Shown in pieces: positions 5,305-20,382 of a stretch of DNA of 43,482 bases. Below the pieces are notes generated by a model, which was not told where the DNA came from, did no database searches, and saw only the letters and a program-made list of their open reading frames with translations. The stretch comes from Candidatus Latescibacterota bacterium. GTDB lineage: Bacteria > Latescibacterota > UBA2968. Location: NCBI GenBank assembly GCA_038279365.1, contig JAYODI010000051.1, positions 1-43,482 on the forward strand, read 5' to 3'. Position 1 is the stretch's first letter; each line of letters opens with the position of its first letter. Position numbers and translations under genes: made by a program.

Positions 5305-6087
5305 TCACTCTATCTCACGTCCCTTAATCTGGATGTCTTTGCTTTCTACAGCTTCATAAATTTGTTTGGGAGGTGCATGAAGTTCTTTGTTGTACAAAAT
5401 GTGAATTTCTACCCGCCGATTTTTAGCCATATTTTGTTCTGAGTTATTGGGTACGATCCATCGATACTCACTATATCCCGTAAAAGAAATGCGATCAGGT
5501 GCAATGCCCGAACGATCCATAAAATAACGTGCAACTTGCAATGCACGCATGCCCGACAACTCCCAATTCGAAGCATACTGCAATGTATTAATAGGGCGAT
5601 TGTCAGTATGGCCTTGTACATTAATGGGGTTAGACAAGGGTTTCAATACGCTCCCCAATTTGTCTAAAAATGATTTTGCACTCTCTTTAAGTTCTGTATC
5701 GGCAGTGGTAAAAAACAATTTGTCTGCGATGCGAATCACAAGCCCAGTCGTGGTTTCTTCAAGCTTTACATCACCTTGTAAACCCGCTTCTTCTATCGCC
5801 GTTTCAAGTTCTTGCCCTGCTTTGGTGAGCACCTCTGCCTGTTGCAAATTTCCTTCCGACTTGGGCATCGATTGGCGAATGGGCAAACTCAACTGTGGTT
5901 CACCACTGAGCACGCCCAACGCACCTTGCAAGGCTCCCATCGCCTGTTGAAATTCCACCACTTCCATGGTTGCAAAAGACAGCAAGAGCACAAAAAAAGT
6001 CAATAAAAGTGACATGAGGTCACCAAAAGTCGCCAGCCAGCCAGGCAAACCTTCGGGACATTCATCATCTTTAATCATGCGGCCCAT
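5305..6087 (-). CDS. motB: Flagellar stator MotB/PomB family protein (second copy)
   Basis: TM segment WLATFGDLMSLLLTFFVLLLS with the catalytic Asp; OmpA-like PG-binding domain (GHTD, NWELS..RA, NRRVEI). Confidence 0.92.
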   Translation of the reverse strand: MGRMIKDDECPEGLPGWLATFGDLMSLLLTFFVLLLSFATMEVVEFQQAMGALQGALGVLSGEPQLSLPIRQSMPKSEGNLQQAEVLTKAGQELETAIEEAGLQGDVKLEETTTGLVIRIADKLFFTTADTELKESAKSFLDKLGSVLKPLSNPINVQGHTDNRPINTLQYASNWELSGMRALQVARYFMDRSGIAPDRISFTGYSEYRWIVPNNSEQNMAKNRRVEIHILYNKELHAPPKQIYEAVESKDIQIKGREIE

Positions 6088-6136: not shown

Positions 6137-6967
6137 TTATTCAGGTCTTCTTCTTCGCCGTGTGTTCTGTTTAATAATAGGTGACCCATCTTCACGCGAG
6201 GCACCCATTTGAGCACCCTTAAATGCTTCTGCCAAAATTTCCAAATTGCCATCTTCTTCACCCGCATATAAAATCAAAATTTCTACCCGACGATTTGTGC
6301 GGCGGCCTTCTGGGGTTGCATTGGTAGCAATAGGGCGATATTCGCCATACCCTTCAGCCGCCAAGCGGGTGGGCATCACCAGTGTTTCTGTAATTAAAAA
6401 ACGCACCACATTCACCGCACGCTGATAAGACAATTCCCAGTTGGTCGGATATTCAGCACTGGGGTTGGCAATAGGCACATTGTCTGTATGCCCTTGTACC
6501 ACCACTTGATTGGGCAATTCACGCAACAAATTACCCAAATCCATCAACACATTGCTCACCTCTGGTTTGAGTTCTGCACCGCCCACATCGTATAAAACCG
6601 GCGCTTGAATGCGAATGACCAACCCAGAAGATGTGCCCAAAAGCGAAACATCACCTTCCAAACCTTCTTCCGACAATGTTTTTTCCAAATTTTCTGCCGA
6701 CTTACGAATGTTTTGCGATTGCCGAATGCTGCCACGCACCATAGGCAAGGTCACCCGAATCGGTTGTGACATTTCAGGCTTCGACTCAAATACGCCCAAC
6801 GAAGCTTTTAATGAACCCATCGCATTTTTAAACTTAATTTCCTCAGTTGAAGAAAAGGAAAGCAACAACACAAAAAAGGTCAGCAACAACGACATCAAAT
6901 CGCCAAATGTTGCCAACCACCCAGGCAATCCTTCTGGGCAATCATCTTCATTAATCATCTTTGCCAT
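6137..6967 (-). CDS. motB: Flagellar stator MotB/PomB family protein (first copy)
   Basis: Same TM motif WLATFGDLMSLLLTFFVLLLSFS; GHTD, NWELSYQRA, GYGEYRP, NRRVEI. Confidence 0.92.
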   Translation of the reverse strand: MAKMINEDDCPEGLPGWLATFGDLMSLLLTFFVLLLSFSSTEEIKFKNAMGSLKASLGVFESKPEMSQPIRVTLPMVRGSIRQSQNIRKSAENLEKTLSEEGLEGDVSLLGTSSGLVIRIQAPVLYDVGGAELKPEVSNVLMDLGNLLRELPNQVVVQGHTDNVPIANPSAEYPTNWELSYQRAVNVVRFLITETLVMPTRLAAEGYGEYRPIATNATPEGRRTNRRVEILILYAGEEDGNLEILAEAFKGAQMGASREDGSPIIKQNTRRRRRPE

Positions 6968-8252: not shown

Positions 8253-10208
8253 CTATTGTTTCAAGTTTACTGTTTCTGCCAAAATCTGATCAGTGGTCGT
8301 CACAATACGTGCATTGGCTTGAAAACCACGTTGTGAAGTAATCAATTCCGTAAACTCTTGCGCCAAGTCCACATTTGATAATTCCAATGATTCGGCAACA
8401 ATAACCGACTCAATGGTTTGACCAGCAATTTCAATCAAAGGATTTCCCGTATTTTCCGTTTCAGAAAATAGGTTGCCACCCAAACGGCGCAAACCACCTT
8501 CATTTTTAAAATTGGCCAAGTTAATACGTGCCATATTCAACGTTTCACCATTGGTAAAGCGACCCTCAATCACACCATCTGTACGAATAAACACGTTATC
8601 CAAGCGACCAGAGGCACGACCGTTTTGATCTACCACATCAGCCGTTGAAGGCGCAGAGAATTGTGTCAAACCGTTAATACCCCGTTCGGGTCTGGACAAA
8701 CCTGAAAAATCCATTCTTAAACCCTGCACATCACCATCTGGATTAAATTCGAGCAATGTCCCATCACCTTCAGTAGGTGTAAAAGAACGGATCGTTCCAT
8801 CTTCGTCAAAAACAACGATTCCCGATCCAGCAGCTGTTGGAATCTGGTTGTCAATGGTCAGGCTATATGCCCACTTATTTGCAACCGGCGATTCTGACAA
8901 GGTAATATTCATCACATGTTTACGACCTTGAGAATCGAAAATGGTCGTACTAATTTTATGTGTCTGCAAAGAATCTGCCCCCACCAAACCACTCCCCGTG
9001 GCATCATCTTCGAGGGAAACATTAATGGTAAATCCACTAACAGATGCACCTGCACTGTCTATCAACTTAATCTTACCCGTTAAATCCACACCACCAGTTA
9101 CATTATCACCAAATGCATTGGCTACCGTGTCGGTAAAATCTTGCAAGGTTGAACCCGCAGCAGCCGTAAAAGTACCATTATAGGCAGTACCATCAGCACG
9201 GGTACCCGAAAACCTTAAAACATCGCCCACTTGTAAGGAAGAACCCACTTGGGACAAGGCATTGAGTTCTATTGCACCTGTCGCCACCGCACTGGCAGTA
9301 CCTGTTGTACCAAAGCCCAATGTAGCCAAAGCTGTTCCAGCACCCACATCAACAGCATTCAGTTGCACACTGGGACCACCAAATGCTGTTCGAAACTCAA
9401 CCGTACCAGCAGCGGCAGGGTTTTCTTGCGCAATCACTTTTCCTGCCAAACGGTCATTACCCGCAATGGCAGCATTTAAACCGTCTACATATTGTTGTGT
9501 CGTTTGATAGTTGGCGGCTGGCAACGTGATAATACCACCCGTAATTCCATCAGGCGTGGTAATATTTAATTCGATCTGTTGAGCCGTAATCACGCCCGGT
9601 GCTGCCCCCCCAGCAATGGTCGAAGCTGTGGCAAACTCCGTTCCCGTATCCAAAGAGGAAACTGGACCAGGATCAATATTGCCCGAAAGATTCACACGTG
9701 TAGTAGCCACACCAGGAATTTCTTGATTCAAATCCAGTTGCAAATTTTGCAAACCCGTTGTCGCACCAAATGAACCCTCATTATTGGCCAAGTTACCTTG
9801 CACCACCAAACCGTTTGATGGGTTGATCAATTGACCCAAAGCATCAAAAGCAAATCCACCATCACGTGTATAAAACCGATTAAGCCCATCGCTCAAAATG
9901 AAAAATCCATCTCCATCAATGGCCAAGTCCGTTCCACGACCCGTGCTCTGCAAACTACCTTGTGTAAACGTTGTATCAATACTTTTGAGCCGAACACCCG
10001 TACCTGCTTGTGATGGGTTTGTTCCCGAAACACCACCTTCTGGTCCCGTAGCTTCTTTAAGCGTTTGTGCAAGCTGATCTTCAAAACTTGCACGACGCGC
10101 TTTAAATCCATTGGTGTTAATATTTGCGATATTGTCAGCAACCACATTCGTGCGCGTTTGATGCGCTTGGATACCTGACAAACCTGTAAACAAAGAGTTG
10201 AGAGCCAT
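8253..10208 (-). CDS. flgE: Flagellar hook protein FlgE (long form, ~651 aa)
   Basis: N-terminal SL.TGLSG..ADNIANINTNGFK, TGRGTDLAIDGDGFF; C-terminal LELSNVDLAQEFTELITSQRGFQANAR. Start moved to ATG 10208, 8 nt after GGAGG. Confidence 0.96.
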   Translation of the reverse strand: MALNSLFTGLSGIQAHQTRTNVVADNIANINTNGFKARRASFEDQLAQTLKEATGPEGGVSGTNPSQAGTGVRLKSIDTTFTQGSLQSTGRGTDLAIDGDGFFILSDGLNRFYTRDGGFAFDALGQLINPSNGLVVQGNLANNEGSFGATTGLQNLQLDLNQEIPGVATTRVNLSGNIDPGPVSSLDTGTEFATASTIAGGAAPGVITAQQIELNITTPDGITGGIITLPAANYQTTQQYVDGLNAAIAGNDRLAGKVIAQENPAAAGTVEFRTAFGGPSVQLNAVDVGAGTALATLGFGTTGTASAVATGAIELNALSQVGSSLQVGDVLRFSGTRADGTAYNGTFTAAAGSTLQDFTDTVANAFGDNVTGGVDLTGKIKLIDSAGASVSGFTINVSLEDDATGSGLVGADSLQTHKISTTIFDSQGRKHVMNITLSESPVANKWAYSLTIDNQIPTAAGSGIVVFDEDGTIRSFTPTEGDGTLLEFNPDGDVQGLRMDFSGLSRPERGINGLTQFSAPSTADVVDQNGRASGRLDNVFIRTDGVIEGRFTNGETLNMARINLANFKNEGGLRRLGGNLFSETENTGNPLIEIAGQTIESVIVAESLELSNVDLAQEFTELITSQRGFQANARIVTTTDQILAETVNLKQ

Positions 10209-10230
10209 TGTTGGCGCCTCCATAAGCTGT

Positions 10231-10283
10231 CCGTTGCGTCAGTCGGTCGGCAACGGTGGGGCTTCCTTCACAGGTCCAGCCCC
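10231..10283 (-). ncRNA. Candidate structured cis-regulatory RNA element in the flgE leader (two adjacent hairpins)
   Basis: GGGGCU-GGA-CCU[GUGA]AGG-A-AGCCCC, then CCGUUGC[CGACCGACUGAC]GCAACGG ending 9 nt before the flgE Shine-Dalgarno; GC-rich island in an AT-rich spacer; no U-tract. Confidence 0.55.
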
Positions 10284-10365
10284 GGGGTGGTAAAATTGAG
10301 ACGTCTCATTCCTTCCCTGGTTTGAAAACATCCACAACAATTTATGTTTTTAACTTTTCCTTTTG

Positions 10366-10761
10366 CTACTTTGCAATCACAGCACTGTCAATATTGGTAA
10401 ACACATTGTCGTTCAAACGCTCACCATCTACTGCCGTAATCACCGTGCGATTTGCCACACTAACCACAAGTGCCAAATCATCGCCACTTGCAGCACCAGG
10501 CATCAACACCAGTGCATCACGTGCTCCTTTATCTGCAGCACGGTTTACTGCATCATTTAACTTTTCAAGTGATTCTGCAGAAAGTTGTATGTCGCGATCA
10601 TTCAGACGGTTTTGAGCATGTGCCGAAAAATGTAATTTTTGATTCTTCTGCAAATGTTGCAGAATATCAGTAAACGATGCAGATCCTTTTGGCGGAATGG
10701 GCGTTTGGCGTCCCAAACTGGGGTCAATAGGAAGTCCGCCCGTATTTTGAATGCGTTCCAT
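10366..10761 (-). CDS. TIGR02530-family flagellar operon protein
   Basis: LHFSAHAQNRL..RDIQL..L..AV.RA..KGARDALVLM..ALVVSV.NRTVITA.D....NVFTNIDSAVI; typical position between flgD and flgE. Start at ATG 10761 with GGAG RBS. Confidence 0.88.
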   Translation of the reverse strand: MERIQNTGGLPIDPSLGRQTPIPPKGSASFTDILQHLQKNQKLHFSAHAQNRLNDRDIQLSAESLEKLNDAVNRAADKGARDALVLMPGAASGDDLALVVSVANRTVITAVDGERLNDNVFTNIDSAVIAK

Positions 10762-10765
10762 CGAC

Positions 10766-11452
10766 TTACTCCGTTTGAGAAATACGTGCCACACCCGACA
10801 GCGGTGCCTCACCACCATCAAGGATCATGATTGGTTTGCCCTCTGCATACCGAACACCTGTTACCTTACCTTGTATTTGTGCCTGAATCGTGACAGCATT
10901 GCCTTCACCATTTACGGCCTTAGGCACAAAATAATATGTGCCAGCAGACAAATTTTGCCCCGAATCATTCTTGCCATCCCAAGCCAAGCTGTTATTACCT
11001 TCTTCTGGCGAATGATCAACAATGGTGCGAACCACATTGCCCTCATCATCAAAAATTTCAAGATCAACACGATTCGCAGGGCCACCCAAATTATATCCAA
11101 GTGGCACATTGCCTTTCCCGGTATACGACAAGGTATCGGTAGGCACTTCAACAGATTTCCCAATGAGAGAAACAGCCGTATTGCTTTCAACCGCCAGCAT
11201 AACGCCGCCCAAAGCTTCCGTATCTTCTTTTCCAGAAACAGCTTCATTGATAGACGTCAGTTGCTCCAAAGAACTAAATTGTGACAGCTGTGCCACAAAA
11301 TCTTCGTTCTTAACCGGCTCCATAGGATCTTGGTTTTGAAGCTGAACAGTAAGCAATCGCAAAAAAGCATCGCGTCCTAAATCTTCCTTTTGAACACTTT
11401 CTGTAATGGTTGCCGTTTGTTGTGGCGTTGAAGCAATATCAGAAATATTCAT
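10766..11452 (-). CDS. flgD: Flagellar hook capping protein FlgD
   Basis: FLRLLTVQLQNQDPMEP....FVAQLSQFSSLEQ plus FlgD-Ig domain (WDGKNDSG..LSAGTY). Start at ATG 11452 after AAGGAGG. Confidence 0.96.
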   Translation of the reverse strand: MNISDIASTPQQTATITESVQKEDLGRDAFLRLLTVQLQNQDPMEPVKNEDFVAQLSQFSSLEQLTSINEAVSGKEDTEALGGVMLAVESNTAVSLIGKSVEVPTDTLSYTGKGNVPLGYNLGGPANRVDLEIFDDEGNVVRTIVDHSPEEGNNSLAWDGKNDSGQNLSAGTYYFVPKAVNGEGNAVTIQAQIQGKVTGVRYAEGKPIMILDGGEAPLSGVARISQTE

Positions 11453-11480
11453 TTTTCCCACCTCCTTTCAATCTATGATT

Positions 11481-11654: not shown

Positions 11655-14600
11655 TTAGGCCATAAAATCAACTTGCCCATCAGATGTTTGTCTTTGCCGC
11701 TTTTCAGCCTGATCCCATCGCGACTCAGAACGTGGTTGTTGACGTTGTTCACGGTTTTGAGAGCGATCTTCTAGACCTTCACGGAAGGCTTCACGATCTG
11801 CTTGATTACCACGGTCATTCACTGATACATCAATATTTTCAATCTGAATACCTTGCCCAGCCAAAGCATCACGCAAAGTGCTCAAATGACGTTGAACAAT
11901 TTCTTGTACTTTCTGGTTCTCAACAACAATTTCGCCCGAAACCTTCTGATCATGGCTCGACAAACGAATGGTCACTTCCCCCAACTCTTGCGGGTCAATA
12001 CGCATCGTTACTTCTGTGTTACCAGCACGCATCATCACACGCGCATTGCGAACAACCTGCTCGCCCACACCGTAGTGACGGTCAATCTGCTCAGATGGCA
12101 TGGTATCCAACTGACCTCTTGCAACTTCTGTGCCAGTGCCTTCGCGATGAACCATATCAATTCGCATTTCAGGATGTTCTGGCATACGTTCTATATTTTG
12201 TAATTCTGTGTCAACACGCTGTTCGATGTTGGGCAAGGCCATTTCTGGTTCAACAACACCACCAAATGCAACAGAAGCGGTATTGTCAGAGGAGTTACTT
12301 GGCGCAACAACGGGTTGATGCGGTGCGTTGTGTTGTTCTCGACCGGCACCATCATTTGTCTGAGAATCTGAAGAAATAATTGTAGAATTTTCCAAGCCTT
12401 CGGAAAATGTTTCAACATCTCGATCCAATTCATCCACAGAACGTTGTGCCTCATCATCAACCGCAGGAGCCTGTATGGGATGTGGCAAAACAGAATCTTG
12501 GGCAACTGGTTGTTGAGATTGTGTCACAACAGGTTGCTGCAAGTCAACTTTTTCTGAAACAACTTTGTGAGAAACTGTTTCTAACGGTTGTGAAAAGACC
12601 AAACGTGAAGTCTGTTTTGTTTCCGCAGGTTGAATCTCTTTGTTTGTAATCACATTTTCTGGCATGGCAACAGAGGGTGCTTGCTCAGACACCACAGACC
12701 GTTCCGTTGTCGTTTCCTCAGGCATCATAGGCACCTGAGAAATCCCATTCTCCACAGTTTCTATGGGGGTTTGTGGCAAAACAACGGGATTTATATCTGT
12801 ACCATTTTGCATTTCAGATGACGTCATTTGCTGAGAGGTATGCAGTGCGGAAGGCAATGGTAATGTTTGCTTGTTTTGAACTTCATCAACAATTGGTGAC
12901 TGAGGTAATACAACCGATTCATTTTGCATCTCAGAAAAACGACGTTGTTGTAGATCACCATTTTGCCCAATCGAAGACATCAACCCACGTTGGGGAGATG
13001 ATGGCATTTTCACCTGTGGTTGGGCCAAACCATTTTGCTCGAACGACTGCGATGGGGTTCCGATGGCCCCTCTTTCTGAGACCAATGGACGAACGTTTTC
13101 TTGAGAACGAGCACTACTCAAGACTGCCGATTCTGATACAGACTCACGGGACACACGATTAGGCTGTGCACCCAACAACTCTTGTTCTGACGAACGTGGC
13201 ACTTCTTGAGAACGAGCACTACTCAAGACTGCCGATTCTGATACAGACTCACGGGACACACGATTAGGCTGTGCACCTAATTCTGCTTTATCAAATGAAC
13301 GAGATGTTTCAGAAGAACGTGCAATTCCCAATACATCTGATTCGGATACGGACTCGCCAGAACCTGCGTCTAATTGGGTTCCCAAATCGACCGACTCATC
13401 TGAGCGAGACACCACAGAAGTGCGCGAAGTTTTCGACATATCAGGCTCTGGTACGGCCCCACGAGGTGTAAAATTAGATACGGCAATTTCACCACTTAGA
13501 TCCATCGCCATTTTTTGCCCAACAACTTGAGAGGTCTGATCAGATACCGTTCGAGATACATTTTGTTGTGAATGAGGTTGTGAAATAGGGGTTTGGCTCG
13601 GAATGACATCATTTTCAGATGCACGTTCCTGAACATCTTCCTCTTGAGATAAAATGGGTGTTTGGGGGCGTGACAAAGCGGGTGGCATCACTTGTTTTTC
13701 GGCACGCGCAGAAGCAAAGGATGAAACATTCACCCGATCTGTTATACTTTGCCTATTAACACTTCCAGAAACACGGTTTTCTACCAAAGGTTGAGGTGTA
13801 ACTTGTGGCTGATTTTGTCGAACGTCTCGCCCAAAAAACCGAGGTGTTTGTTCTACGTCAGCAAGATCCTTTTCCACAACACCAGCATCCACCGTTTTAT
13901 CCACTTGGACCAATTGATCAGACGGCAATATAGACTGCGTCTCTATGGGCGACTGTGCCACATATAAAGAACCATCCTGTCCATTCGCATTATGGGTGTG
14001 AATTGTCTCTTTCAAGGCCACAGACAATTCCGAATCAGATGCATCCTCTTCACTTAAAAAACGTGCCTGAGATTGAGTTTCAGATACCATATTTTGAGAC
14101 GATTCAATATCTATCTCGGCATCTTCGTCTGACAAGGCATCCAATACAAAACGCGGTTGTGAAACACCTTGCCCAACCTGCGCAACACCACCATTTGAAC
14201 CAACTGTTTTAGGTGTCTCACTTTGCAATAAAACCTCTGTCGATGGCGCGTTGTCAGTGCGTCTAAAAATGGGTAATGGTGAATCGGGGTCATCAGAAGC
14301 AAGATCTTCTAATGCAACAGTTGGCAATTCTCGTCTTGCGGATGCAAGCATATTTCTACCACCTTGCAAACGTCGATCAACCGCCAACAAATCATAAGGC
14401 GATACCCCCTGACGCACTTGTTCGCCATTGGCTTTTAGCGCCGCCCCAGATGCCTCAGATGCTGAAACAGGTGTTAACGAAACCATATCTTGTGCCACAT
14501 CTTCCAAACCAGTCTCGTCTAACAATGGTTTTCCCATCAGTGCAAATTCACCCGCCCCATCCTCCTCCCCTTCAACAGAAACAACAGGTACAAATTTGGC

Positions 14601-14894
14601 ACTTTGAGCCGACAATGGTGCAACCTGCGGCCCCTCCGCTTCAGGTACCAACACAGACATAATCTGTTTGGGTGTATCGCCACCAGATTCAGCGCCATCA
14701 AGCAAGTCTGCCATTAAAGCAGCAAGCTTGGGTCGCTCTGGCATTGGTAAGGCTGGGGCACCCTCAGCATCAAATTGATGCTGAGCGTTTTGCAACATAT
14801 CCCGAAAACCAGTACCAATATCGAGCAACCCTGAATGATCTGGCAACTGAACAGATGGTGCACCAGGTAATGGTTGCAAGGGTAAAAGAAACAT
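11655..14894 (-). CDS. fliK: Flagellar hook-length control protein FliK (very long, 1079 aa)
   Basis: Long S/Q/P/E-rich low-complexity region plus C-terminal FliK_C domain (VTMRIDPQELGEVTIRL...L.TLRDALAGQGIQIENIDV); directly upstream of flgD. Confidence 0.9.
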   Translation of the reverse strand: MFLLPLQPLPGAPSVQLPDHSGLLDIGTGFRDMLQNAQHQFDAEGAPALPMPERPKLAALMADLLDGAESGGDTPKQIMSVLVPEAEGPQVAPLSAQSAKFVPVVSVEGEEDGAGEFALMGKPLLDETGLEDVAQDMVSLTPVSASEASGAALKANGEQVRQGVSPYDLLAVDRRLQGGRNMLASARRELPTVALEDLASDDPDSPLPIFRRTDNAPSTEVLLQSETPKTVGSNGGVAQVGQGVSQPRFVLDALSDEDAEIDIESSQNMVSETQSQARFLSEEDASDSELSVALKETIHTHNANGQDGSLYVAQSPIETQSILPSDQLVQVDKTVDAGVVEKDLADVEQTPRFFGRDVRQNQPQVTPQPLVENRVSGSVNRQSITDRVNVSSFASARAEKQVMPPALSRPQTPILSQEEDVQERASENDVIPSQTPISQPHSQQNVSRTVSDQTSQVVGQKMAMDLSGEIAVSNFTPRGAVPEPDMSKTSRTSVVSRSDESVDLGTQLDAGSGESVSESDVLGIARSSETSRSFDKAELGAQPNRVSRESVSESAVLSSARSQEVPRSSEQELLGAQPNRVSRESVSESAVLSSARSQENVRPLVSERGAIGTPSQSFEQNGLAQPQVKMPSSPQRGLMSSIGQNGDLQQRRFSEMQNESVVLPQSPIVDEVQNKQTLPLPSALHTSQQMTSSEMQNGTDINPVVLPQTPIETVENGISQVPMMPEETTTERSVVSEQAPSVAMPENVITNKEIQPAETKQTSRLVFSQPLETVSHKVVSEKVDLQQPVVTQSQQPVAQDSVLPHPIQAPAVDDEAQRSVDELDRDVETFSEGLENSTIISSDSQTNDGAGREQHNAPHQPVVAPSNSSDNTASVAFGGVVEPEMALPNIEQRVDTELQNIERMPEHPEMRIDMVHREGTGTEVARGQLDTMPSEQIDRHYGVGEQVVRNARVMMRAGNTEVTMRIDPQELGEVTIRLSSHDQKVSGEIVVENQKVQEIVQRHLSTLRDALAGQGIQIENIDVSVNDRGNQADREAFREGLEDRSQNREQRQQPRSESRWDQAEKRQRQTSDGQVDFMA
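13098..13277. repeat. Exact 75-bp direct repeat (105-bp period) inside fliK
   Basis: 13098-13172 is identical to 13203-13277; encodes GAQPNRVSRESVSESAVLSSARSQE twice. Confidence 0.95.
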
Positions 14895-16042: not shown

Positions 16043-17341
16043 TTATTTGGCTAACAAACTCGCCATTTTGGATATGGTTTGATCGTATGGGGCTTGGTCT
16101 TGAATACCTTGCCGCAAAAATGTATTCACAGCATCTATACGATCAATTGCAAAATCAATTTTAGGATTATTGCCCTTTTGATAGGCACCAATATTGATCA
16201 AATCTGCAGCCTCGCGATATGTTGCCATCAAATCTTTAAGCCGATTGGCACACTCTAAGTGTTGCGATGTTGCCACCTCAGTCATCACACGGCTTACACT
16301 GTCGAGTGGATCTATGGCAGGATAATGACCCTGTGATTGCAAACGGCGTGACAACACAATATGACCATCCAAAATAGAGCGCACAGAATCGGCAATAGGA
16401 TCATCCATGTCATCGCCTTCAACAAGCACCGTATACAACCCAGTAATACTGCCACGAGCTCCCATACCAGCACGTTCGAGCAAGCGTGGTAATAAGGCAA
16501 AGGTCGATGGTGTATATCCACGCGTAGTAGGTGGCTCACCTATGGCCAACCCCACTTCTCGTTGTGCCATCGCCACACGGGTGACCGAATCCATCATCAT
16601 TAAAACATCTTTTCCCAAATCGCGAAAATGTTCAGCAATCGTTGTTGCCACTTGTGCAGCCTTAATGCGCACCAAAGCGGGTTGATCTGATGTGGCCACC
16701 ACCACCACAGATCTTGCAAGTCCTTCTTCTCCCAAGTCGCGCTCTAAAAAGTCGCGTACTTCTCGACCGCGTTCACCCACCAGTGCAATCACATTGATAT
16801 CGGCTTTTGCTTGTCGAGCAAGCATGCCCAACAACACACTTTTCCCCACACCACTCCCCGCAAAAATACCAGCACGCTGTCCTTTGCCACACGTAATCAA
16901 ACTGTCAATCGCCCGAATGCCCGTGGCAAGCGGTTCTGTAATGCGTTGCCGAGACATAGGGTCGGGCGGGTTGCCAGCAATAGCGCGTTTTTGATCGGCC
17001 CATAAAGGACCTTTGCCATCTATGGGCTCACCCATCGCATTGAGCACTCGCCCCAGCAAAGCATTGCCAACACGCACTGTAATAGGCTCATCGGTTGCCA
17101 CCACGCGACTGCCTGGTGCAATGCCATCCATATTTCCCAATGGCATCATCAACACACGGTTATCGCGAAAACCAACCACCTCAGCCAAAACCGTTTTTTC
17201 ACCTTCGATACGACAGCACTCACCAATAGACACAGATGGCCCAGTTGCCTCAATAACCAAGCCCACCACCTGGCTCACACGCCCACCTAACCGAATGGAA
17301 TCGGTATTTTTTGTCGTCTCTATGAGTTGTGCCACATTCAT
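16043..17341 (-). CDS. fliI: Flagellar export ATPase FliI
   Basis: GIFAGSGVGKS Walker A, GERGREV, MDSVTR, GEPP.TRGY, ILDGHIVLSR. Confidence 0.97.
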   Translation of the reverse strand: MNVAQLIETTKNTDSIRLGGRVSQVVGLVIEATGPSVSIGECCRIEGEKTVLAEVVGFRDNRVLMMPLGNMDGIAPGSRVVATDEPITVRVGNALLGRVLNAMGEPIDGKGPLWADQKRAIAGNPPDPMSRQRITEPLATGIRAIDSLITCGKGQRAGIFAGSGVGKSVLLGMLARQAKADINVIALVGERGREVRDFLERDLGEEGLARSVVVVATSDQPALVRIKAAQVATTIAEHFRDLGKDVLMMMDSVTRVAMAQREVGLAIGEPPTTRGYTPSTFALLPRLLERAGMGARGSITGLYTVLVEGDDMDDPIADSVRSILDGHIVLSRRLQSQGHYPAIDPLDSVSRVMTEVATSQHLECANRLKDLMATYREAADLINIGAYQKGNNPKIDFAIDRIDAVNTFLRQGIQDQAPYDQTISKMASLLAK

Positions 17342-18771
17342 GATTGCTCTGCCTCTTCATCATTTCCAGATATATCATCTATTAAACCTGTCTGTTCTTC
17401 TAAACTTTCTGGCAATTCCACTTCATCTGTTGACTGTCCCACCACATCTTCGCCATCAGCAACATCAGCATCTACAGGCAAAGCATCCAGCACCTCTTCA
17501 GTGACTGTTTCAGCGGCCAAATCCCCTTCGCCCAACTGACCATCACCATCTGCTTGTGCCAGCAAATAGTTCTCAGCTTGAACATCAGCACTTTCTGCTT
17601 CCGTAGGCAAATCTGGCTCGGATTCTGCAGCCACAACACTTTCTGCTTCCGTTACATCTTCCACAGAAATCACAGGTTCAACATTTTCCATTTCAACACC
17701 AGCGGTCACCTCATCAAGGCTTTCTATATCATTTCCTGACAACGGTGCCTCTGACAACACATCTTTCGCAGAAACAATCGCATCTTTATCTTCACCAGCA
17801 GGCAAGGTAGGCGCATCTGCAACCTGAGAGGATTGTGGAACGGTTTCAACAGGTTCAATTACATTTTCATCTATAAACTCAACAGTGCCTTGACCACCCA
17901 CATTGGCAATCACATCCGACACATCGGGTGCCGTTTCTTGGGGTTCATTTTGCAAGCTTTCCAAAATAACACCACGCAATTTCTCTATCCGTGAAACAAG
18001 TTGCCCATCAATATCACCCGATGGGGTTTCAATAATACACCCACCACGTTCTATCGATGCATCGGCTTCAATAATCATAGACTCAATGCGTTCATAAGAT
18101 TCTTGCCAATGTGTTCGATTTGCACGCACAAGCACAAGATCATCGGGATTGACACAAATGGTTAACTGCTTGGTATCTTGCACATGTGCCAAACAATCGC
18201 GCACAGATTGCAAAACCAAATCTTCACGAACATCAGACACGGCACCAATAATATTTTGAGCAATGGCAAAGGCCAACTGTGTCACATCCATATCTGCCGA
18301 TTTAAAAATCCGATCCCATCGATCTGCCAAGTAACCAAGCATGGCTTGAAAACGCGCGATTTCATCTTGGCTTTGTGTTTGGCCTTCGGCCAATCCCACT
18401 TGATATCCTTCTTCATATCCTTGTGCATGCCCAGCTTCAACTCCGGCCTGATGAGCCGATTCTATTGCCTGCTCTTTTTCTTGCAAAAACTGTGCTTCGG
18501 CTTCCCGCAATCTTGCTTCAATCAATCCTTCAACTTCTTCCATCGACAACTTCGGCTCTGCTTCTGTCTCATCCACAACTTCTACTTGTTCGCCCAATGG
18601 TCGAAATGCGACAGATTCTTCGACATCTTGGTTTTGTGCTGCCTCAAAATCTTCTTCAGAAACGGTTTCTTCTTCAGATTCGAAAGGCAACTCAACCATG
18701 CCACGATCCACATGGATAGGCAATACAACAGGCTTGGAGGAAATACGGGCAGTGCGAATGACTCTGTTCAT
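17338..18771 (-). CDS. fliH: Flagellar assembly protein FliH with long acidic C-terminal tail
   Basis: GxxxG repeats (AGVEAGHAQGYEEGYQVGLAEG), VNPDDL, DASIERGGCIIET..GDIDG; overlaps the fliI start. Confidence 0.88.
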   Translation of the reverse strand: MNRVIRTARISSKPVVLPIHVDRGMVELPFESEEETVSEEDFEAAQNQDVEESVAFRPLGEQVEVVDETEAEPKLSMEEVEGLIEARLREAEAQFLQEKEQAIESAHQAGVEAGHAQGYEEGYQVGLAEGQTQSQDEIARFQAMLGYLADRWDRIFKSADMDVTQLAFAIAQNIIGAVSDVREDLVLQSVRDCLAHVQDTKQLTICVNPDDLVLVRANRTHWQESYERIESMIIEADASIERGGCIIETPSGDIDGQLVSRIEKLRGVILESLQNEPQETAPDVSDVIANVGGQGTVEFIDENVIEPVETVPQSSQVADAPTLPAGEDKDAIVSAKDVLSEAPLSGNDIESLDEVTAGVEMENVEPVISVEDVTEAESVVAAESEPDLPTEAESADVQAENYLLAQADGDGQLGEGDLAAETVTEEVLDALPVDADVADGEDVVGQSTDEVELPESLEEQTGLIDDISGNDEEAEQS

Positions 18772-18846
18772 AATATTAAATGACCAACCTTTAGAAACAA
18801 TATGTTCAACAAAGACGCTTTTTGAGCGATGAACGAAAAACCTTTT

Positions 18847-20382
18847 TTATTGACCTTGACGTTGCCGATTTGATGCGTCTTCAATAAGCATCGTACGGAT
18901 CAATTTGGCAGCATCTTCAGGACGTTCCGAAATCAATTGTGCAATACGGCCCAAGATAATCTCATGTGGCGTCTCGGGCAATTCTTCTCCAGCATCATCT
19001 TCTTCCAACTCGCGCTGGGCCTCCATTGCAATTTCTTCTTCACGTGCCACACCGCGTCCAATAGCACCAATAATGGCACGCAATACCAGCAGTGCAATGA
19101 TAATGGCAATACCCTTTGCCACATTGATCACAATATTTGTAATCAATTCATCGCGTTCATTTTCTTTTCGTTTCTTTTCTGCAACCACGCGTAAGTCTTG
19201 AATGGCAAACACAAATCGACTGACCTCCAGTCGGTCTCCTCGGCTTTCATCCATTCCCAAAGCACCACGCACCAAATTGGAAAACTGGAGCATATCATCA
19301 GCTGTACGTGTTTTATACACAGGGTTTTCTGGGTCGGTTGTTGCTTCAGCATCGGGCACCTTGTCATTCAACATCAATGAAGCCGAAATGCGACGAATGC
19401 GCCCAGGTGCACCCGTAATACGCTGAATGGTGCGGTCAATTTCATAGTTTGAAACACTGCGCTCACTTGTGCCAGCCTCAGCAGAAGATTCTTCATTGCG
19501 TTCTTCACTGCGCAACACCGTATTGGCGGGGTCATATCGTTCAACTTCTTCTTGTACTTCTCGAAAATCCAAATCGACCGAGACTTTCAATTTTGCCTGA
19601 TCGGGGCCCAGTACCAAGTCTAAAATCTCTTGTACTTCGCGTTGCATATATCGCTCAACATTGCGCTGGGCTTCAATTTGTTTGGTCGTCATTTGTGCCA
19701 AAGGATCAATTTCTTCAGACAGCATATGACCAGCATTGTCTAACACCGTTATATTCTTTGGATCAAGTCCTTCAACACTGCTGGCCACCAAATTTTGTAT
19801 GGCCTGAATTTGTTGTTTGTCCAACGTCATGCGTGGTCTAAGATTGAGTAATATAGATGCCGTTGCTGGTTTTTGCTGATCTGTAAACAAACTCGGTTTG
19901 GGTGTTACCACATGAAGACGTACATCTTCAACTTGTTCCAATGCCAAAATGGTTTTTTTAAGCTCACCTTCTAAAGCCTGCTGCATCTTTACTTGTTGCA
20001 AAAAGTCTGTCATACCCAAGGGCATGTTATCAAACACTTCGTAACCAATATATCCAGTTTTGGGAAATCCTTCAGTAGCCAATATATTGCGCAATTCGGC
20101 GCGATCACTGTCGGGCACCAAAATGAGCGAACCATCGGCACCTAAGTGAAAATCTTGATTCATCTCACGCAAACGATTAGAAATTTCGCCCGCTTCTTTC
20201 ATGTCAATATCCGTATACAATGGGCGATAAACCGTATCTTCGCCATTCCCACTGCTTGCAACAAGATAGATCAAAAAAATCAAAATGACACCGGCACCCA
20301 CACCGATACCGATTTTTTGATTGCGCCCCATTGCCTCAAACATCTCACGAGCTTTTTCTAAATATGCCCGAATGGCATCCAT
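18847..20382 (-). CDS. fliF: Flagellar MS-ring protein FliF
   Basis: Two TM segments; GYEVFD...GMTDF.Q.....ALEGEL, ATASI.L, LVASSVEGL; C-terminal PEDAAKLIR. Confidence 0.95.
   Translation of the reverse strand: MDAIRAYLEKAREMFEAMGRNQKIGIGVGAGVILIFLIYLVASSGNGEDTVYRPLYTDIDMKEAGEISNRLREMNQDFHLGADGSLILVPDSDRAELRNILATEGFPKTGYIGYEVFDNMPLGMTDFLQQVKMQQALEGELKKTILALEQVEDVRLHVVTPKPSLFTDQQKPATASILLNLRPRMTLDKQQIQAIQNLVASSVEGLDPKNITVLDNAGHMLSEEIDPLAQMTTKQIEAQRNVERYMQREVQEILDLVLGPDQAKLKVSVDLDFREVQEEVERYDPANTVLRSEERNEESSAEAGTSERSVSNYEIDRTIQRITGAPGRIRRISASLMLNDKVPDAEATTDPENPVYKTRTADDMLQFSNLVRGALGMDESRGDRLEVSRFVFAIQDLRVVAEKKRKENERDELITNIVINVAKGIAIIIALLVLRAIIGAIGRGVAREEEIAMEAQRELEEDDAGEELPETPHEIILGRIAQLISERPEDAAKLIRTMLIEDASNRQRQGQ

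Follow-up and report, generated by a model that had tools for sequence, protein, structure and literature searches.

A conserved two-hairpin RNA in the flgE leader that accompanies the TIGR02530 gene and may control hook-protein synthesis

Autogenous RNA operators lying beside the gene of the protein that acts on them are well known from ribosomal-protein leaders and from RegA and RegB of phage T4, and Bonifield et al. in 2000 reportedly described a post-transcriptional control of Salmonella FlgE that depends on the stage of flagellar assembly. Rfam also has two motifs that precede flagellar genes, Termite-flg (RF01729) and flg-Rhizobiales (RF01736). In the FliW-CsrA system acting on flagellin leaders (hag of B. 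subtilis and flaA of C. jejuni; PMC4894983), synthesis of a high-copy axial protein is controlled post-transcriptionally via GGA motifs near the Shine-Dalgarno (SD) sequence and is tied to the state of flagellar assembly. The element described here was found in a contig of Candidatus Latescibacterota (JAYODI010000051.1; the whole stretch analysed, 43,482 nucleotides (nt), is called the window) and consists of two hairpins, H1 and H2, in the spacer between a small gene of the TIGR02530 family and flgE, the gene of the hook protein. It shares with the autogenous operators the arrangement of a gene for a small protein next to a short structured RNA whose conserved bases are unpaired and near an SD, with Termite-flg and flg-Rhizobiales the character of a conserved structured RNA upstream of a flagellar gene, and with FliW-CsrA the GGA motifs near the SD of an axial-protein gene, where it would likewise act after transcription.

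Together the two hairpins make up a cis-acting RNA of conserved structure in the 5' leader of flgE, a gene within a long flagellar operon. That such an RNA is present in this leader is near certain, and it is likely that the element acts post-transcriptionally on flgE. The reading preferred here, which draws on sequence comparison and a predicted structure, is that the RNA serves as an operator to which the TIGR02530 protein would bind and so control hook-protein synthesis, and we put its probability at roughly 0.45. As a ligand the TIGR02530 protein is the best single hypothesis, held at about that level and more weakly than the regulation of flgE, because of the strict co-occurrence of gene and RNA, the dispersed copies of the RNA in one genome (G291) and a basic conserved helix face on a predicted fold with RNA-cutting toxins among its nearest neighbours.

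Structure and conservation of the flgE leader RNA

Two covariance models were used: R1, built from seven sequences of the window's order, and R2, rebuilt from 52 aligned matches with its structure limited to the two hairpins. Both stems covary strongly. In a model-fitted alignment of 87 sequences 95.8% of cells form standard pairs, compared with 38-51% when the partners are slid, and 341 cells are changed on both sides, compared with 36-75. Double changes occur in 16 of the 17 pairs, including all seven of H2, and none of 500 shuffles reached the observed values; the 52-sequence alignment gave similar pairing statistics. The covariation that the first-pass annotation of the window had proposed to look for is therefore present in both stems. 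The most conserved letters are unpaired ones. G20 and G21 of the H1 bulge are found in 87/87 sequences and A22 in 77/87, and the base opposite the GGA bulge is a purine in all 87. The 12-nt loop of H2 follows the pattern N-GA-NY-GA-YN-GA-N with each GA step 91-97% conserved, and we infer that a hexaloop could be closed by tandem sheared pairs between the first GA and the third.

G-U pairs are present, including 19 U-G at one pair, and are compatible only with a sense-strand RNA. All R1 and R2 matches at the 80 loci of a cross-phylum scan (see below) lie on the coding strand, and both observations favour an RNA over a DNA element. A signal at the DNA level, whether a promoter internal to the operon or a palindromic operator to which a dimeric transcription factor binds, would draw some support from H2 being an inverted repeat and from its loop, which may loosely resemble the -10 box of sigma-28. 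The stems, however, change freely while remaining complementary, G-U pairs included, unlike a protein-bound DNA palindrome, and the H1 tip ranges from 3 to about 30 nt across loci, so that no promoter spacing is fixed. With the exclusive coding-strand orientation added, we regard a DNA-level signal as extremely improbable.

The module in the window comprises the following features, all on the minus strand.

10766..11461, minus: flgD (hook cap / scaffold), upstream of the module; PF03963, PF13860 and PF13861, with NF005176 at 141.9 bits
10366..10761, minus: the TIGR02530 / PF12611 'Flagellar_put' gene, 131 amino acids; TIGR02530 at 108.2 bits (cut-off 83.2), PF12611 at 46.1 bits (cut-off 21.1)
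10291..10365, minus: non-conserved 5' part of the spacer, including a 12-bp palindrome (10297-10308); no counterpart in the spacers of relatives
10284..10290, minus: CCACCCC, a possible anti-SD; conserved only within the window's order, with RNAalifold pairing to the flgE SD
10258..10283, minus: H1, with an outer and an inner stem flanking the invariant GGA bulge, which faces one purine, and with a variable tip; from sequence, minimum free energy (MFE) fold and alignments
10231..10256, minus: H2, with a 7-bp stem of free sequence and a 12-nt loop carrying GA at three positions 4 nt apart; from sequence, MFE fold and alignments
10217..10221, minus: flgE SD, GGAGG, 9 nt after H2 and 8 nt before the ATG
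8253..10208, minus (ATG 10206-10208): flgE (hook protein), whose leader carries the element; TIGR03506 at 264.9 bits, NF004241 at 326.5 bits, Pfam FlgE domains

In the first-pass annotation two hairpins had been described between the TIGR02530 stop and flgE, and this description holds: in H1 the GGA bulge faces one A, giving a GGA / A internal loop, one unpaired base separates it from H2 and nine bases lead from H2 to GGAGG. It had also been argued there that the element is no terminator. No U-run follows either hairpin, the SD and flgE lie directly downstream, and the GC-rich element is not an intrinsic terminator. Both hairpins are present in the MFE fold. The folding energy of the 169-nt stretch is unremarkable (z = -1.69, with 11 of 200 shuffles folding equally well), so the single window sequence proves nothing and the evidence beyond chance comes from comparison with other sequences.

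This comparison began close to the window. Of 41 genomes from the genus, family and order of the window (its own genome counted), 7 have TIGR02530. Each of the seven TIGR02530-flgE spacers holds the two hairpins; both stems show compensatory changes, and the spacer cannot otherwise be aligned. R1 found one copy in the window's own genome and matched 9 of 53 genomes of the order and 10 of 132 of the class. Weak extra matches in the window's genome (15 and 13.6 bits) were taken as chance; the one looked at falls within a coding frame of the opposite strand. The H1 tip varies in both sequence and length among the relatives. The GNRA cap that had been assigned to H1, and the 12-bp palindrome, which does lie at the place given for it, occur in the window sequence only, the palindrome being absent from the spacers of the six relatives; they are lineage-specific details outside the conserved element. 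Pairing of CCACCCC with GGAGG was predicted by RNAalifold and was omitted from R2; its pairs are invariant within the order, which allows no test of covariation, and are unalignable outside it (84.6% paired, with many gaps).

Rfam 15 gave no match in the spacer at E≤10 and none in 12 diverse loci at E≤1, a check for which the first-pass annotation had asked. Searches of the full-text literature, with subscription-only papers and supplements outside their reach, found no description of a flgE leader motif or of a hook-related structured RNA, and only passing mentions of TIGR02530, PF12611, Flagellar_put or DUF3766. Table 2 of a 2026 preprint dealing with ancestral flagellar genes still gives Flagellar_put as 'function unknown' (PMC13277936), and a megaphage preprint does no more than note a homologue. 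Neither Rfam nor the searchable literature has this RNA family, and the catalogue of such families gains a well-supported member that spans many phyla.

Distribution of the RNA and its association with TIGR02530

A homologue search returned 6576 TIGR02530 family proteins at E≤0.001, falling into 2373 representative clusters at 50% identity; the family was found in none of 14 control genomes, E. coli included. In a cross-phylum scan with one genome per species, 592 of 600 candidate stretches were confirmed and 80 loci kept. Their titles include several classes of Bacillota, Armatimonadota, Calditrichota, Cloacimonadota, Desulfuromonadales, Solirubrobacteraceae, Eremiobacterota, Dormibacterota and Fibrobacterota, as well as Sericytochromatia and bins labelled Chlorobiota and Bacteroidota, some of these bin labels being plainly unreliable. 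R1, trained on Latescibacterota only, matched the plus strand just 3' of TIGR02530 in 51 of these 80 other-lineage loci at E≤0.01. R2 matched directly 3' of TIGR02530 in 71 of the 80 at E≤1e-5, of which 27 are new finds since 44 of the 80 loci were among its training sequences. With filters off, the remaining nine gave seven weak matches (5.6-14.1 bits) and two none; by eye only, five of them (L063, L072, L090, L104 and L112) show an H1-like stem with a GGA bulge, and four (L092, L117, L121 and L127) could not be read either way. Eight loci titled Solirubrobacteraceae (L065, L080, L099, L102, L103, L108, L116 and L129) have H1 only, followed immediately by a purine-rich SD and flgE.

Separately, bins titled Methylocystaceae, Betaproteobacteria, Chitinophagales and Methanoregulaceae archaeon (L061, L067, L079 and L127) carry Bacillota- or Armatimonadota-like TIGR02530-flgE loci, and here the label or the contig assignment looks wrong. 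The sole match in a phage collection, to an unverified 'Bacteriophage sp.' scaffold, says nothing about phages. On that scaffold (L145, MT835480.1 34636-40965) frames of the size of fliK, flgD and flgE, not scanned for their families, surround a TIGR02530 homologue that is followed by the motif, and the stretch looks like bacterial DNA or a prophage flank.

Strict co-occurrence with TIGR02530, which the first-pass annotation had proposed to test, was borne out in two classes. Among the 132 genomes of the window's class 10 have the RNA, exactly these 10 also have TIGR02530, and 39 have FlgD; the 29 flagellated genomes with neither RNA nor gene fall in one other family, and in the 28 of their FlgD-only loci that were scanned, filters being off, no score exceeded 12.7 bits (E 0.63). 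The second class, that of the Paenibacillus koleovorans record, was represented by 151 evenly drawn genomes, of which 111 have FlgD, 61 have TIGR02530 above the cut-off and eight more have a diverged form below it (60-73 bits). R2 at E≤1e-4 matched 62 of the 151, namely all 61 carriers, on the same contig and abutting the gene, and one other genome (G217), whose match (23.6 bits) was taken as chance as it has no GGA and lies on a different contig from flgD. All eight diverged loci carry the element when filters are off (24-36 bits), so that the RNA is present in 69/69 TIGR02530-bearing genomes. At 20 flgD loci from the 42 flagellated genomes of this class without the gene, also scanned with filters off, the best score was 10.1 bits (E 0.13). 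The contrast is therefore 10/10 against 0/29 in the window's own class and 69/69 against 0/20 scanned loci in the second, and none of the 48 flgD loci scanned in full in flagellated genomes without TIGR02530, both classes together, holds the RNA. In the loci that the model could read the gene was not seen without at least H1, and the RNA was not seen at a flgD-flgE junction without the gene. The motif is thus present elsewhere, it covaries, and it does not occur equally without TIGR02530, each of which speaks for the idea first put forward from the window alone.

The position of the element varies. In 73 placeable loci the median distance from the TIGR02530 stop to H1 is 13 nt; H1 overlaps the stop codon in 18 and starts no more than 10 nt after it in 13 more, and the distance exceeds 100 nt in eight. 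The window and its relatives have the element some 80-155 nt beyond the stop, and the most distant member of the window's class keeps both hairpins about 125 nt before the SD. Downstream, a frame with a hook-type N-terminus follows in nearly all loci, 12-170 nt (median 30) from the end of the element, in a count in which four loci end too early and the start was mis-called in two. The loci in which H1 includes or closely follows the stop codon suggest a further explanation, that the element acts in cis at the junction, with H1 coupling the TIGR02530 stop to flgE initiation or setting the yield of TIGR02530, and that the protein has an unrelated role, for example as a hook-assembly helper or export chaperone. 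In keeping with this, UC comes right after the SD of flgE in 23 of 43 loci, compared with 8 of 128 SDs of other genes at the same loci, where UG is commonest (27/128), and GAGGUC is the exact complement of H1 strand G21-C26. No compensatory change was found, however: none of 36 variant H1 strands has a matching SD flank, so an alternative-pairing switch between H1 and the SD is unsupported by covariation. The distances in the window, its relatives and the distant class member also count against action at the junction, as do the extra copies in G291, which follow no TIGR02530 frame, and we consider this explanation improbable.

One strong copy of the RNA is present in six of the seven genomes read at the level of the locus, and in the 151-genome scan nearly every carrier has one match, with a second, weak match in one genome. 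Genome G291 has four strong copies (55.5, 52.3, 52.2 and 43.6 bits; at L166, L169:80-164, L170:1501-1583 and L171:1501-1588), yet a single TIGR02530 and a single flgD. Of its extra copies one immediately precedes a rod gene of the FlgF/G type, another stands about 370 nt ahead of a flagellin gene, and the third precedes a 90-codon frame without a Pfam family. As they are away from the gene, they favour a trans-acting reader of the motif and disfavour a purely stop-codon-coupled device.

The same copies bear on the possibility that the RNA is a genuine flgE leader element which works without TIGR02530, as a site for CsrA, for an RNase (Y, E or III) or for the ribosome, or as a 5' stabiliser of processed flgE mRNA, and that the co-occurrence reflects adjacency and shared descent. 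The GGA at the H1 bulge and at the SD recall CsrA sites, and a fliW-csrA pair is adjacent on another contig of the window's genome (G000:C194:20332-20889). Gene and RNA abut or overlap and would hence be lost together. Differential mRNA stability is a common solution within long operons, and flgE is internal to one; a metatranscriptome contig reaching from flgD to flgE is compatible with a polycistronic, processable RNA. Against this, CsrA, which was detected in 92 of the 151 genomes of the second class, was searched for without success in 10 of the 69 genomes that have the motif, among them all eight with the diverged gene, and 33 of the 82 genomes that lack the gene do have CsrA. An obligate partner CsrA is therefore not; in genomes with both it may still bind. 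The GGA moreover sits in an internal bulge and not in an apical hairpin loop (the SD being GGAGG), the gene is never seen without at least H1 in readable loci, and the G291 copies indicate that adjacency to TIGR02530 is not needed for the RNA to persist. On balance we hold action without TIGR02530 to be somewhat unlikely.

Metatranscriptome contigs from four runs in three studies fall on the region, and they show neither ends, strand nor level, with DNA carry-over possible. One of them, from a strain variant, spans 9431-11144 and so covers flgE, the spacer, TIGR02530 and flgD; it differs from the window at 10291, 10294, 10296, 10340, 10346 and 10352 and at no position within 10231-10290.

In the window the genes run in the order FliK-type gene (1079 amino acids), flgD, the 131-codon TIGR02530 frame, the 157-nt spacer, flgE, flbD, motA, two motB-like genes and fliN, with fliE, fliF, fliH, fliI and fliJ in the upstream part of the operon, and from this gene order on both sides flgE occupies a mid-position in one long flagellar operon. 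The place of the TIGR02530 gene between flgD and flgE, which the first reading had recognised, is confirmed by its family score and is repeated at other loci read. Several neighbours have features of their own. The FliK-type protein (11655-14894, minus) is unusually long, with near-repeats in its middle part and a Flg_hook match confined to the C-terminal ~80 residues. After the single motA come two neighbouring MotB-type genes with MotB_plug and OmpA domains (5305-6087 and 6137-6967, minus). A 477-aa frame within 17338-20382 (minus) matches FliH at residues 136-265 only and has a long N-terminal part without a family; between fliF and this frame no match to the FliG family was found at E≤1e-5 (17338-20382, minus). 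Elsewhere in the window's genome there is a second, short FlhB-C-like frame (G000:C62:6004-6228, 104 aa, 72 bits, Bac_export_2 positions 260-335) in addition to a full flhB on C48.

The TIGR02530 protein as a candidate ligand

The predicted structure of the TIGR02530 protein improved from a pLDDT (predicted local distance difference test) of 65 with a 30-sequence alignment to 84 with 148 sequences, with 74 residues at 90 or above. In the model the first ~28 residues are of low confidence and are followed by a helix at 30-39, helices at 47-55 and 62-77, three strands within 82-112, a short helix and a last strand. The alpha-alpha-beta-beta-beta core carries the FSxHAxxR motif (residues 45-52). 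Near-invariant residues include S46; H48, R52 and R56, which stand at i, i+4 and i+8 on one helix; K78-G79, N104, T106 and T109; and the C-terminal F-T-N-I-D-S-A. It had been suggested from the motif that the fold might be RelE- or DUF4258-like. This is in agreement with the structural neighbours, 16 of the top 20 being toxins of the RelE/ParE/HigB/YafQ type aligned over 65-79 residues of the predicted core, and members of the RelE, HigB and YafQ groups act on RNA. The suggestion found no counterpart at the level of sequence: Pfam at E up to 10 gave only PF12611 and a weak WCOB match and none to RelE, ParE, YoeB or DUF4258, the 148-sequence profile had no match among PDB sequences at E up to 10, and a search of the ESM Atlas returned the family itself only. 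No antitoxin gene lies beside TIGR02530, whose neighbours are flgD and flgE.

Under the preferred reading, the operator and the protein encoded immediately upstream of it would form the two halves of a dedicated post-transcriptional control module. The protein would recognise the invariant unpaired purines, that is the GGA bulge of H1 and the three GA steps of the H2 loop, and once bound, 12-170 nt (median 30) ahead of the flgE start, it would alter how ribosomes reach the message or what becomes of the mRNA. The amount of hook protein could in this way be set relative to FlgD and the other products of the operon, repression and activation being alike possible.

A more elaborate version takes account of the N-terminus. 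Early (rod/hook-class) export substrates begin with small hydrophobic residues (a signal at positions 2-5), which a gate-recognition motif follows about 20-35 residues on; in Salmonella FlgD this motif is 36-FLTLL-40, and the best separation is about 24 residues (PMC8983047). In the TIGR02530 family F30 is present in 148/148 sequences, position 33 is I, V, L or M in 131/148 and position 34 is L, F, V or I in 148/148 (F30-x-x-hydrophobic-L34); the invariant F lies at a median of residue 36 from the start, and a hydrophobic residue is found within positions 2-6 in 139 of 141. As a pattern match this resembles the layout of an early substrate of flagellar type III export, and the pattern is short and may be a mere part of the fold. 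TIGR02530 might then be a secreted translational checkpoint, an RNA binder of RelE/ParE fold that silences flgE mRNA through the H1-H2 operator, and in some genomes rod and flagellin mRNAs too. As itself an early substrate of the export gate it would be pumped out once the gate became competent, and hook synthesis would be released. Such a checkpoint would be an RNA-level counterpart of FlgM/sigma-28 and could explain a dependence of FlgE synthesis on assembly stage in these phyla; we think it a long shot.

Several points weigh against the operator having TIGR02530 as its ligand. ParE-type members of the fold do not act on RNA, and ASKHA subdomains (CoaX and YeaZ) score almost as well as the toxin neighbours. 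Foldseek, which had been proposed as a check, returned nothing from the PDB at E≤0.001 with either model; because of this, and because neither a sequence-level link nor an antitoxin gene was found, the fold is termed 'RelE/ParE-like, unproven', and the analogy with DUF4258 is a lead and not a finding. The lineages without H2 (those titled Solirubrobacteraceae) keep all conserved residues of the protein except D112, otherwise 94% conserved, which is G, and for that reason there is no clear protein-RNA co-variation. That change, together with A71 to G, is all that sets these lineages apart; as they form a single clade no weight was given to it. Among the genomes counted for co-occurrence, related ones are not independent, and joint loss is weaker evidence than it looks because gene and RNA are contiguous and a single deletion removes both. 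Lastly, the alignments behind the pair counts were fitted to the model, which favours structure; the earliest structural evidence, from the seven spacers of the order, came from a MAFFT alignment that was not.

TIGR02530 / Flagellar_put is among the most widespread proteins of flagellar operons with no known function. That its gene is inseparable from a strongly covarying flgE-leader RNA with invariant unpaired purines points to a dedicated RNA-protein control of hook synthesis. The question of how about a hundred copies of FlgE are obtained, at the right stage of assembly, from a gene amid low-copy operon neighbours is thereby made testable in cultivable Bacillota and Desulfuromonadales.

Comparison with known systems

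From the systems introduced above the element also differs in several ways. In FliW-CsrA control the target is the filament and here it would be the hook; the window element has a GGA bulge and a triple-GA loop, does not track CsrA, and has as its companion TIGR02530 and not CsrA or FliW. As no Rfam model matched, the element is not a member of Termite-flg or flg-Rhizobiales. The RelE/ParE/HigB/YafQ toxins share with the predicted core of TIGR02530 the succession of two helices, a three-stranded sheet and short C-terminal elements, and differ from it in sequence profile, in having antitoxin genes and in lacking its additional low-confidence N-terminal segment of about 40 residues. In autogenous operators the protein families are unrelated to TIGR02530 and the operator serves the protein's own start, whereas here it precedes the next gene, flgE. 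Finally, the FlgM/sigma-28 checkpoint and the control of FlgE in Salmonella, an organism without TIGR02530, both make the synthesis of an axial protein depend on what state the export apparatus has reached. The window's locus may resemble them in this respect, given that TIGR02530 carries sequence features like those of early export substrates, and it would differ from FlgM/sigma-28 in that control would be exerted on an RNA and not on a sigma factor.

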